DNA of 64,000 nt from the IMG/VR virus record IMGVR_UViG_3300037804_000222, positions 1-64,000 of that record; one strand, written 5' to 3'. A program made the position numbers and the translations under genes. Under the pieces are notes generated by a model, which was not told the origin of the DNA, did not search any database, and saw nothing but the letters and a program-made list of their open reading frames with translations. This stretch comes from a virus. This document shows, one piece after another, positions 38,100 to 47,147 of this stretch (position 1 is the stretch's first letter; each line of letters begins with the position of its first letter).

Positions 38100-38760
38100 T
38101 TATGGCAGGTTATAACCTGATAAAATGTTCGTGAACGTACGGCTATAGCCTGATGAGATTGTTCAGTGGACTGAACAATTGTCCAGTTTTTTGATTAATA
38201 AACTGGACATTTGTCGCTTTTTTTGCGACAGTTGGCTGTAGGAGAAGGATTCGAACCTCCACGTAGTAGTTAGCTAAAGGACAGATTTTAACCAGGGCGC
38301 TGCGCAGCTTGGTGGTCAATCCCATTATCCTTAGTTTATCCTATAATCTACACCCCCGAGACAGGAGGGTATGTCTGCCAATTTCATCACCCTACATTAA
38401 ATTTGTACGTATTCCGTACATATATAGGTTTTCCTTTTTGTTAACGTCAACAAAATGGTTTACTCCGTCAGTTGCTCCGTCAACAAAAGGGTTTACTTAT
38501 AGTTACAAATGTAAACAACTTAGTATAACTTTTAACTATACTTAAAACTTATTGCTCTATTCCCCAAATAAACGGTTTTTCTGCGATTGTAATCACCAAA
38601 TAACCGAAAATGAAGCTCAAGCTAACCTTAATTGTGTCTCATATTTGATACAAAATGAGCTTTATTGGTGCAAATATGCACCACATCTGCACCACATTAG
38701 GTTTGTTTTGTTACAGTTTGACAATCATTTTACCCTTGTTTTGATACACAAACAAGTTTG
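38100..38760. repeat. Array of diverse short inverted repeats, part 1 (interrupted by a tRNA-like gene)
   Basis: CAGGTTATAACCTG 38106, GGCTATAGCC 38141, ATTGTTCAGT-GG-ACTGAACAAT 38158, TGTCCAGTTT..AAACTGGACA 38180, TGTCGC-T7-GCGACA 38212, TGTACG..CGTACA 38404, TTTTGTT..AACAAAA 38436, AGTATA..TATACT 38522, GGTGCA..TGCACC 38667, CTTGTTT..AAACAAG 38735. Confidence 0.85.
38233..38396 (-). tRNA. Atypical tRNA-like RNA: GUC anticodon, class II-type D-arm, about 90-nt variable arm, encoded CCA
   Basis: Acceptor TGTAGGG/TCCTACA-G-CCA; D-arm ATG-AAATTGGCAGA-CAT; anticodon arm CCCTC-CTGTCTC-GGGGG; T-arm GGAGG-TTCGAAT-CCTTC. Confidence 0.8.
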
Positions 38761-38761
38761 A

Positions 38762-39019
38762 TTAGAATCTTTTTACATTATCAGACAATGACTCTATGAA
38801 ATTATTTACGCTATCGTACAGCTTTTTCTTTTTCTGCTCTACTTCTGCACATCTTTTTTGGTAATAGGTTATAGCTTCAACGTAAGCATCTTGCTCTGTT
38901 TCTGCTCCCATAGATAAGTTCATTCCTCTTGTTTCATCATACAACCAATAGCCATCCTTACACTCTGATATAGTTAGGCTATCTGTTAGTTTTATGTTAC
39001 TTATTGCTTTACTTGCCAT
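38762..39019 (-). CDS. Hypothetical protein embedded in the palindrome array
   Basis: 85 aa with a good AT-rich leader; DGYWLYD motif. Confidence 0.65.
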   Translation of the reverse strand: MASKAISNIKLTDSLTISECKDGYWLYDETRGMNLSMGAETEQDAYVEAITYYQKRCAEVEQKKKKLYDSVNNFIESLSDNVKRF

Positions 39020-39029
39020 TTTATTTAGC

Positions 39030-39332
39030 TTTTAGTATGTACCAATTTGGTACATAATTAAGTGGTATGTCGGGATTTCCGACTAGTTCAATCTTAGTAA
39101 AATGTCCCAATTATTACCTATTTTCGGTACTTCTGGCGAATTTTTACTAAGATTCTTGATTCGCGAATTGCAAATTAATCTACAAGAATCACAATATAAT
39201 ATGAATTGTGCATGATTTGTCATGCGTTAACCCCATAAACGGTACTTAATGTATGAGAACTCATACAATAATGTGATTTTCGTAGTATTTATATGTAGAA
39301 ACATACAACTGGTGATGATTTGTCACTGGTTG
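39030..39332. repeat. Array of diverse short inverted repeats, part 2
   Basis: TATGTACCAA-T-TTGGTACATA 39036, GTCGG..CCGAC 39069, AATCTTAGTAAAA 39090 / TTTTACTAAGATT 39142, ATTCGCGAAT 39159, CACAAT..ATTGTG 39190, GCATGA..TCATGC 39210, TGTATGAG-AA-CTCATACA 39250, TATGT..ACATA 39292, CAACTGGTGA..TCACTGGTTG 39306. Confidence 0.85.
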
Positions 39333-40251: not shown

Positions 40252-40392
40252 TTGTCAAAGAGGCAGGAGTCGAACCTGCATGAAGGACATCACAGCCTTT
40301 ATGTGGACTTTTACCACTTCCGAATTACCAAGACTCAGTTAATTACTCCGCTTCTTTAGAAATTCTGCGTTTACCGTTTCGCCACTCCTTGA
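40252..40392 (-). ncRNA. tRNA-like RNA with extended anticodon arm and branched variable region
   Basis: Acceptor (T)CAAGGAG/CTCTTTG(A); D-arm GCG-AAACGGTAAA-CGC; GAATT..34 nt..AATTC; T-arm GCAGG-TTCGACT-CCTGC; 3' end A-CAA. Confidence 0.75.
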
Positions 40393-45233: not shown

Positions 45234-45280
45234 TAGTAAAGCATGCAGGAATCGAACCTGCATTTATACCATATGCTTTA
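45234..45280 (-). ncRNA. Mini-tRNA (acceptor stem + T-arm only)
   Basis: TAAAGCAT-ATGGTATAAAT-GCAGG-TTCGATT-CCTGC-ATGCTTTA-CTA. Confidence 0.65.
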
Positions 45281-46827: not shown

Positions 46828-47049
46828 CTATGCCCATATGATTCCGCCATCTGCGATGGTGCTAATCTCAGGCACTTCAGTGCCTTTAGCAAATTCGTCG
46901 CTACAGTCGCCTTCTAGGCGGATGAAGCAAGTATTTGCATTGGTAGAGACCACTCGGTCTTTACCAAGAATTTTGCGAGTTTCGAACCCGCTTAAACCTA
47001 CGACAGTTTGACCGTCTTTAACTTGAACCCAAAAACATTTAGTTTTCAT
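46828..47049 (-). CDS. Hypothetical protein, probably among the first early genes
   Basis: 73 aa followed by a strong terminator. Confidence 0.6.
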   Translation of the reverse strand: MKTKCFWVQVKDGQTVVGLSGFETRKILGKDRVVSTNANTCFIRLEGDCSDEFAKGTEVPEISTIADGGIIWA

Positions 47050-47147
47050 AATGTAGCAAAATTTAGTTAGGGGGCATTAGTGCCCAAAACTTAGAGGGGG
47101 TGGGGTTATATAAGTGGTCTACTCTCTCATTTCCGTAAACAAAATTT

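Follow-up and report, generated by a model that had tools for sequence, protein, structure and literature searches.

What a tRNA-shaped gene with an aspartate anticodon and a giant variable arm is, and why a phage should carry it, is the question raised by a locus in the viral record IMGVR_UViG_3300037804_000222 from IMG/VR, of which positions 1 to 64,000 were analyzed (this whole stretch of 64,000 nucleotides, nt, is called the window here). An earlier note, made from the letters of the window alone, had described an Asp (GUC) tRNA with a class II, Leu/Ser-like body and a variable arm of about 90 nt, and all of this is present: a complete cloverleaf can be read on the minus strand from position 38396 to 38233, which corresponds to an RNA of 164 nt with an arm of 92 nt. 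The arm helices listed at that time (AAGGAUA/UGUCCUU, GAUU/AAUC and GACCA/UGGUU, with the cap GCUGCGCAGC) were likewise found. The picture of a phage oddity, in contrast, has to be given up, because the gene is a copy of a chromosomal RNA family of Bacteroidota that has its own AsnC-like regulator. The giant-armed Asp-type tRNA-like RNA is thus a member of a conserved tRNA-derived family of Bacteroidota and phages that is absent from Rfam, and that the locus is a real, conserved RNA gene is nearly certain. With regard to its function, we favor, at a probability of roughly 0.4, an RNA that is processed like a tRNA, probably charged by aspartyl-tRNA synthetase (AspRS) and kept off the ribosome, its conserved arm docking a partner.

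A conserved tRNA-derived family of Bacteroidota and phages

A distant BLAST search returned one homologue, located in the 636-kb genome of an uncultured phage (LR756504), and this copy differs from that of the window by compensatory changes in the acceptor, anticodon, T and arm-base helices. Two rounds of pattern scans through IMG/VR yielded 9 and then 40 viral loci, and the pattern also matched at least 120 bacterial genomes, all of them Bacteroidota among the matches listed. The cellular carriers listed belong to the Chitinophagaceae, families of the Cytophagales, Pedobacter and other Sphingobacteriales, the Saprospiraceae, and a metagenome-assembled genome (MAG) of the Flavobacteriales. Cellular and viral copies were combined in a covariation alignment of 80 sequences with 36 proposed base pairs. 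Over these pairs, 96.9% of the alignment cells are paired and 27 of the 36 show changes on both sides; when the 3′ partner was slid by 1–3 columns as a control, pairing fell to 46–57%, and no shuffle matched the alignment in any measure. The acceptor helix and the T helix are paired in 100% of the cells, with six of seven and four of five pairs changed on both sides, respectively, and the anticodon helix in 99.3%. Judged by the general test for a cloverleaf, the acceptor, D, anticodon and T helices are 97–100% paired and changed on both sides, and the nucleotides responsible for the tertiary fold of tRNAs (U8, A14, G18-G19 and the GUUCRA T loop) are among the invariant columns. An RNAalifold prediction from 31 viral copies alone resulted in the same cloverleaf together with the arm helices V1, V1b and V2, 23 of the 33 predicted pairs being compensatory. 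The search for homologues and covariation that the earlier note had proposed as a check was therefore successful, with compensatory changes in every helix.

A covariance model built from the 80-sequence alignment (R1) recognized the window copy with 149.4 bits (E = 1.9e-39) over all 158 model positions. The next-best matches, ordinary class II tRNAs of 82–86 nt resembling the tRNA-Leu of the host, scored 40–63 bits. Among 151 evenly sampled Bacteroidota genomes, R1 reached at least 93 bits in 16. The pair U1-A72 occurs in 78 of the 80 homologues and G2-C71 is invariant. The window copy shows every trait by which the family is defined, namely a Leu-type class II core, the anticodon loop YUGUCYC, U1-A72, G73-C74 and the internal arm loop GNAUAAAC / GCUAAC. 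In one genome (G059, L223), a copy with a scrambled 5′ third, whose acceptor and D arm are unrecognizable, lies next to a 3′ fragment; these copies at the end of a contig are probably decayed duplicates.

Standard tools overlook the gene. ARAGORN, which had also been suggested as a check, did not call the locus 38233-38396 at default settings with or without the intron option; at relaxed stringency it produced 173 calls that amount to noise, and none of eight short family members was called. Rfam scans of the window at gathering thresholds gave no match at this locus, and a scan of four cellular loci with Rfam 15 revealed no family beyond a weak tRNA. When the locus was searched alone, the Rfam tRNA model (RF00005) aligned wrongly with 15 bits and did not reach its gathering threshold of 29 bits. 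A member of only 108 nt (L004) passes the same model with 42.0 bits over model positions 1–71, the arm being treated as an insert in the variable region, and it is therefore the arm length that makes the window copy fail. Taken by itself, the RNA is predicted to fold no more stably than shuffled versions of it (z = +0.69), so the sequence on its own is no proof of function; the proof is provided by the comparative evidence.

The coordinates of the gene and its parts are listed in Table 1. In the window copy, the acceptor stem comprises 7 bp, with U1-A72 as its first and G7-U66 as its seventh pair, and is directly followed by U8 and G9. Its D arm is nearly the same as that of the tRNA-Leu of Niabella. 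The hairpin upstream of the gene suggests that the RNA either obtains its 5′ end by processing or starts independently. The first hairpin on the 3′ side was not called in a simple terminator scan. The surrounding spacer (38100-39332) is almost free of open reading frames and densely filled with short inverted repeats, three hairpins lying directly downstream of the RNA. The position within a palindrome array, to which the earlier note had drawn attention, is real, but appears incidental given that related phages have the gene at other module borders.

Table 1. The giant-armed RNA gene, its parts and the neighboring hairpins (positions in the window)
Feature	Position	Strand	Remarks
Whole tRNA-like RNA gene	38233..38396	-	164 nt; U1 = 38396, G73 = 38236, CCA = 38233-38235
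Acceptor stem, 5′ strand UGUAGGG (RNA 1-7)	38390..38396	-	partner 38237-38243
Acceptor stem, 3′ strand UCCUACA (RNA 154-160)	38237..38243	-	followed by G73 (38236) and C74
D arm, 3-bp stem AUG/CAU and 11-nt loop AAAUUGGCAGA	38371..38387	-	class II, near-identical to host tRNA-Leu
Anticodon arm, stem CCCUC/GGGGG and 7-nt loop CUGUCUC	38353..38369	-	GUC = 38360-38362, then U37 and C38
Variable arm (RNA 45-136)	38261..38352	-	92 nt; V1, bulge, V1b, internal loop, V2, apical domain
V1 helix	38348-38351 with 38263-38266	-	4 bp; 4-nt bulge after V1
V1b helix	38341-38343 with 38267-38269	-	3 bp
V2 helix	38326-38333 with 38276-38283	-	8 bp
Internal loop, 5′ strand GAUAAAC	38334..38340	-	invariant columns; C63 pairs with G123 and closes the loop
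Internal loop, 3′ strand GCUAAC	38269..38274	-	invariant columns; kept even in the 108-nt minimal member L004
Conserved arm element GGGAUUGACCACC	38311..38323	-	family consensus GGGUYGACCAC, nearly invariant
Apical hairpin GCUGCGCAGC	38299..38308	-	perfect 10-nt palindrome
T arm GGAGG-UUCGAAU-CCUUC	38244..38260	-	canonical GUUCGAAUC loop; helix covaries
Terminator-like hairpin	38404..38420	-	just upstream of the RNA 5′ end
First hairpin 3′ of the RNA, UGUCGC-A7-GCGACA	38212..38230	-	no U tract; part of the palindrome-rich spacer

The variable arm across the family

The length of the arm varies from 38 to about 140 nt, whereas its core is kept. V1b has the form NGG/CYN with strong covariation, and the asymmetric internal loop next to it places 5′-N-AUAAA-3′ opposite 5′-CUAA-3′ and is closed by C63-G123, a pair that the divergent copies of genome G135 have in the reverse orientation, G-C. 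The 4-nt bulge after V1 is expanded to a hairpin in one genome. Beyond the loop, the apical domain is variable in size and contains GGGUYGACCAC in most members; in the short members (108–123 nt), a small hairpin replaces everything beyond the internal loop, GGGUYGACCAC is missing, and the loop motif is kept. The element GGGAUUGACCACC of the long-armed window copy is partly paired with the strand UGGUU...AAUC at 38284-38294. This extra strand is restricted to the window copy and its close relatives, and the shorter phage copies do not have it; the helices GAUU/AAUC and GACCA/UGGUU are accordingly a property of the long-arm subgroup, the shorter relatives having no 3′ partner strand.

Several further observations concern the shape of the arm. 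A perfect palindrome of at least 8 nt forms the arm tip in 25 of 27 viral copies, its sequence differing between clades, and the tip palindromes at 38299-38308 of the window and at the same position in L005-L043 have the 4-nt loops UGCA, GCGC, GUAC and UUAA. These palindromes hint at dimerization of the RNA, at template switching as their origin or at a symmetric site in the DNA. In the cellular copies listed, the arm mostly ends in an ordinary loop, for example GAAA. Some copies of Chitinophagaceae (L056, L112 and L139) have a small hairpin of the GCGAAAGC type inserted in the D loop, showing that expansion is not limited to the variable arm. The codon that the GUC anticodon complements, GAC, lies within GGGUYGACCAC, and GAU is present there in one divergent copy. 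A likeness of the arm motif (AUAAAC ... GCUAA) to the fluoride riboswitch was dropped since no Rfam match was obtained.

The modular length of the arm and the strongly conserved, apparently single-stranded stretches within it would fit a tRNA scaffold that presents a cargo RNA, one of the functions considered in the earlier note. In such a case the arm, for example GGGUYGACCAC, would act by base pairing or after excision, while the tRNA body would serve processing and stability. However, short members do without this element while keeping everything else, and conservation is just as high in the anticodon loop and the acceptor end as in the arm. Moreover, when the genome of the phage was searched for sequences complementary to the RNA, only AT-rich chance matches were obtained and none of at least 10 nt to the GGGAUUGACCACC element. 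We therefore regard a cargo function as improbable and continue to view the arm as a putative docking site of an RNA kept off the ribosome.

Maturation, charging and the AsnC-like regulator

The G73 and the encoded CCA pointed out in the earlier note are present in the window copy, but only the first is a property of the family. G73 was found in 159 of 160 trimmed copies and the following base is C in all of them, whereas CCA is encoded in 17 of the 160, so that G73-C74 is essentially invariant and the CCA incidental. In the complete genome of the carrier Niabella defluvii, the ordinary tRNA genes end with the discriminator and C, mostly without CCA. A hairpin with a U tract is often located 3′ of the cellular copies of the giant-armed gene. 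A tRNA-like maturation of the RNA is plausible.

Its identity elements were compared with the bacterial identity table (PMC9976931). The Asp elements G73, G34, U35, C36 and C38 are invariant in the 80 aligned copies and are kept in most of the divergent copies found with R1, with the exception of those of genome G135 that have a UUC anticodon. Due to this conservation of Asp determinants, AspRS is most likely the enzyme that would charge the RNA. Four traits that are used by seryl-tRNA synthetase (SerRS) are present as well (G73, G2-C71, R4-Y69 and a large variable region of at least 38 nt in all members), and allo-tRNAs with Ser identity often have the anticodon GUC (PMC5389517), which is in line with the earlier proposal of an RNA that would put Ser at Asp codons. 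Yet three of the seven bacterial Ser elements, namely C72, C11-G24 and G30-C40, are replaced by A72, by U11-A24 in 75 of the 80 copies and by C30-G40 in 76 of them, the architecture is 7/5 and not 8/4 or 9/3, and the whole anticodon loop is conserved although SerRS ignores the anticodon. An intron, the removal of which would leave a class I tRNA-Asp and which the earlier note had named as a possible refutation, is not supported either: neither group I or II introns nor ribozyme families of Rfam matched the locus at E values up to 10, the base of the arm covaries like a normal variable-arm helix, and the invariant motif lies inside the arm of all members down to that of 108 nt. Mischarging with Ser and removal of the arm together have, in our view, a very small chance of being correct. 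Leu identity requires A73 in E. coli, and the family has G73.

In its cellular context, the RNA is linked to an AsnC-like regulator. A gene of about 156 amino acids lies approximately 160 nt upstream on the opposite strand, and thus divergently oriented, in 107 of the 120 cellular loci listed. It encodes a regulator of the Lrp/AsnC family whose best NCBIfam match is the AsnC equivalog with 157.7 bits, which does not reach the cut-off of 227 bits; Lrp scores 49 bits. Each of the 15 RNA-bearing genomes in the sample of 151 has an orthologue of this regulator with 49–85% identity, compared with a single sampled genome devoid of the RNA (G017), while the next tier of matches shows at most 42% identity. 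In four carriers the two genes are unlinked, with no RNA adjoining the regulator, and the genes next to the regulator in these four and in G017 displayed nothing consistent. The outer neighbors vary by lineage and include suf genes, trmB, an AMP-binding enzyme and transporters. Based on co-occurrence and linkage, the regulator and the RNA look like a functional unit. In genome G071 (L227:1355-2917), the RNA is situated on the same strand as lysS (lysine-tRNA ligase, 687 bits), about 210 nt downstream of this gene, and the AsnC-like gene does not adjoin it.

The Asp-type loop, U1-A72 and the AsnC-like neighbor gave rise to the idea of an Asp-to-Asn carrier, an off-ribosome platform that AspRS would load with aspartate and the amidotransferase GatCAB would convert to asparagine. 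U1-A72, present in nearly all copies, promotes amidation by bacterial GatCAB, while G1-C72 blocks it, and the tRNA-Asn used in asparagine synthesis by AspRS and GatCAB has U1-A72, G73 and G34-U35 in common with the family (PMC1635274). In favor of this route, the linked regulator resembles AsnC best and gatB is found in all sampled carriers; among five carriers tested, AsnRS was detected in five, GlnRS in four, and both together with GatB in four. However, gatB is present in 127 of the 151 sampled Bacteroidota compared with 16 that have the RNA, and hence GatCAB does not track the RNA. Since AsnRS is present in carriers, the RNA is not needed for the formation of Asn-tRNA. Furthermore, tRNA-Asn has U36 in place of the C36 of the family, and an extra base in the D loop blocks amidation (PMC1635274), so that the large class II D loop with its extra bases may be an antideterminant. 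No anticorrelation with asnB was seen, an asnB-type synthetase above cut-off being encoded by 12 of 15 sampled carriers, and asnA was found in only 4 of the 151 genomes and not adjoining the regulator. For the same reasons, the RNA as a replacement for asparagine synthetase is unsupported. Amidation by GatCAB thus appears improbable, and we return to an aspartate-charged RNA outside translation as the preferred reading.

The anticodon loop bears on whether the RNA decodes. Near-universal U33 and a purine at position 37 are established traits of decoding tRNAs. All copies selected by the pattern have the loop YUGUCUC; those found with R1, which are less biased by the search pattern, also include CUGUCCC, CGGUCUC, UCGUCUC and CUUUCUC. 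As these variants all have a pyrimidine at position 37, this position is U or C in every copy, and a purine was never seen. The window copy has U33 and U37, and two lineages have G or C in place of U33, so the combination of U33 and a purine 37 in a 7-nt loop, as expected of a decoding elongator, does not occur in the family. The loop CUUUCUC (UUC, Glu box) belongs to two tandem members of 110 nt in genome G135 (L221:1070-1179 and 1292-1400), the only lineage seen without GUC. Niabella has 41 distinct tRNAs according to ARAGORN, including a normal 75-nt tRNA-Asp (GUC) with the loop CUGUCAC, and the 636-kb phage has 38, including its own 74-nt tRNA-Asp with the loop CUGUCGC; in this phage the giant-armed RNA is located apart from the canonical tRNA-Asp, inside another tRNA cluster. 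The giant-armed RNA is consequently an extra gene in the host as well as in the huge phage. The assertion of the earlier note that it is no ordinary tRNA-Asp therefore stands, but the RNA is no invention of a phage either, and mischarging with Ser and an intron fit poorly.

The main rival of an off-ribosome function is a specialized tRNA-Asp isoacceptor with an expanded arm that truly decodes in host and phage translation, perhaps under special amino-acid conditions or with resistance to tRNA-targeting enzymes. It is supported by the complete tRNA core with its universal tertiary nucleotides, the preservation of GUC in nearly all copies, the score of the short member on the Rfam tRNA model, the location in the tRNA array of the huge phage, and 3′ ends built like those of ordinary tRNA genes. 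On the other hand, no copy has a purine at position 37, a position with a stabilizing role (PMC7609411), and variants with G33 and C33 exist. A decoding isoacceptor would also be redundant with the canonical tRNA-Asp, tRNA genes do not usually have a dedicated AsnC-like regulator, the invariant arm motif is not needed for decoding, and U1-A72 stands against the G1-C72 that is strictly conserved in bacterial tRNA-Asp (PMC9976931). On balance, we consider decoding unlikely.

According to the reading that we prefer, the RNA would mature like a tRNA, with cleavage by RNase P and completion of CCA after the encoded C74, and would probably be charged with aspartate by AspRS. It would not be a routine decoder; instead, the whole arm with its invariant internal loop (AUAAA opposite CUAA) may form a docking surface for a partner, and the RNA may have a role outside the ribosome that is tied to amino-acid status, be it that of a sensor, a regulator or an aminoacyl carrier. 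The phage copy, which comes without the regulator, might supply or override this host function during infection. Several points weigh against this proposal. The Asp elements G10 and G1-C72 are absent, position 10 being A, G or U and the pair 10-25 being AU in 58, GC in 6 and UA in 6 copies of the 80-copy alignment. The pyrimidine 37 weakens decoding without excluding it, GUC is kept in nearly all copies as it would be in a decoder, and Rfam sees the short members as plain tRNAs with a long arm. Part of the co-occurrence of regulator and RNA may be due to common ancestry of the carrier orders, no protein that binds the arm was identified, and the phage neighborhoods contain no conserved tRNA-related protein or enzyme. 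A bolder version, in which an AspRS-charged RNA that occurs throughout the phylum, is regulated by amino-acid status and is kept off the ribosome recruits a partner by its arm, serves as carrier or charge-sensing regulator, and was repeatedly retained by phages from crAss-like ones to that of 636 kb to control the pathway during infection, is possible but doubtful.

Phage copies and related tRNA-shaped RNAs

The phage of the window is about 97% complete at 90.8 kb. Its large terminase shares 37.5% identity with the one of Cellulophaga phage phi14:2 and has further matches among crAss-like gut phages, which identifies the virus as a marine crAss-like phage. The RNA is encoded on the same strand as the replication genes, close to those for a family A DNA polymerase and a helicase, and in related viral contigs it is found at the border of the replication and packaging modules. 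The genes in these neighborhoods (DnaB, a DnaA-like helix-turn-helix protein, an exonuclease, Sak4, terminase and portal) are exclusively concerned with replication and packaging. Over the core columns, the viral copies are closest to those of a Cyclobacteriaceae MAG (L072) and of L152, with 87–90% identity. They have kept all hallmarks of the family and show compensatory changes among themselves, and are hence under selection.

ARAGORN detected no canonical tRNA in the phage of the window. That such a phage should own a giant-armed RNA but no ordinary tRNA would suit an uncharged decoy or sponge, whose loop titrates an enzyme reading GUN (an anticodon nuclease, as the earlier note had suggested, AspRS or a modification enzyme) and whose arm adds stability or a second site. 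Loop positions 35–38 are indeed kept more strictly than decoding requires, and anticodon-loop mimics in mRNAs are known to bind their synthetase (PMC9976931). A pure loop decoy would, however, not need an acceptor end with G73 and C74 that is as conserved as the loop. In addition, the family is chromosomal and associated with an amino-acid-type regulator and not with a defense island, and no nuclease or immunity gene is linked to it. A decoy is therefore quite unlikely compared with a charged RNA that is held off the ribosome.

Besides the giant-armed RNA, the phage of the window contains several tRNA-like pieces. A second tRNA-like gene of 137 nt (40255-40391, minus strand) has intact acceptor, D and T arms and about 68 nt in place of the normal anticodon and variable region; it scores 33.4 bits on the Rfam tRNA model, above the gathering threshold, and is read as Thr (GGU) by ARAGORN with the intron option. 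A related viral contig, L038, has a copy with 92% identity at a distance of about 2.6 kb from its own giant-armed RNA. At 46968-47063 (minus strand), ARAGORN reports a 96-nt 'tRNA-SeC(TCA)' that is a weak, AT-rich cloverleaf, and at 45237-45279 (minus strand) there is a 43-nt minihelix with T-arm and acceptor parts only (22 bits on the Rfam tRNA model). In the huge phage LR756504 (L228, 132400-136600, and L233), tRNAs of 88–89 nt for Thr (UGU), Asn (GUU) and Lys (UUU) have long variable arms, although class I tRNAs are the norm for these three amino acids.

Neither Rfam 15 nor the papers searched contained a report of an RNA, tRNA or tRNA-like, that has such an arm and stems from Bacteroidota or crAss-like phages, and its nearest relatives in print are class II tRNAs and allo-tRNAs (PMC5389517). 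With bacterial class II tRNAs, especially tRNA-Leu (RF00005), the family shares the 7/5 acceptor and T stems, the 3-bp D stem, a D loop of the GAAUUGG-AGAC type, the universal tertiary nucleotides and a long variable arm that starts after position 44. It differs in that their arm measures about 13–21 nt, as opposed to 38 to about 140 nt with an invariant internal loop, and that their anticodons are those of Leu, Ser and Tyr, whereas the family has GUC along with G73, U1-A72, a pyrimidine 37 and its own regulator. The anticodon loop of class I tRNA-Asp (GUC) is the same except for position 37 (CUGUCAC in Niabella versus CUGUCUC), and G73, G2-C71 and C38 are shared as well; the class II body, U1-A72, the variable position 10 and the giant arm are not. 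Allo-tRNAs are likewise long-armed, non-canonical RNAs with G73 from metagenomes and phages, often with GUC, and have been proposed as missense tRNAs or regulators, but they are defined by 8/4 or 9/3 branches and Ser identity (PMC5389517). The giant-armed family, in contrast, has a covarying 7-bp acceptor and 5-bp T stem, lacks three Ser elements, and occurs in Bacteroidota with a far larger, sequence-conserved arm. The tRNA-like domain of tmRNA, YrlA/Y RNAs and viral tRNA-like structures are also tRNA-shaped with non-decoding roles, and some of them are aminoacylated. These mimics have no true anticodon arm or a permuted topology, while the giant-armed RNA has four canonical arms and its ends form the acceptor stem; no match to the tmRNA, Y RNA or viral tRNA-like families of Rfam was obtained.

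If the function proposed here is true, the family would be a new example of tRNA machinery that is reused outside translation, in which the determinants for the synthetase are kept, those for decoding are dropped and the gene has an AsnC-like regulator of its own. Genomes annotated with ARAGORN or Rfam would then miss a conserved, regulated gene, and an abundant class of tRNA-derived RNA, overlooked by standard annotation, would be common to Bacteroidota and their phages, including crAss-like ones. The invariant motif of the arm is a candidate for a new RNA-protein or RNA-RNA recognition module, and the family may offer a handle on why phages without ordinary tRNAs keep a single tRNA-like gene.

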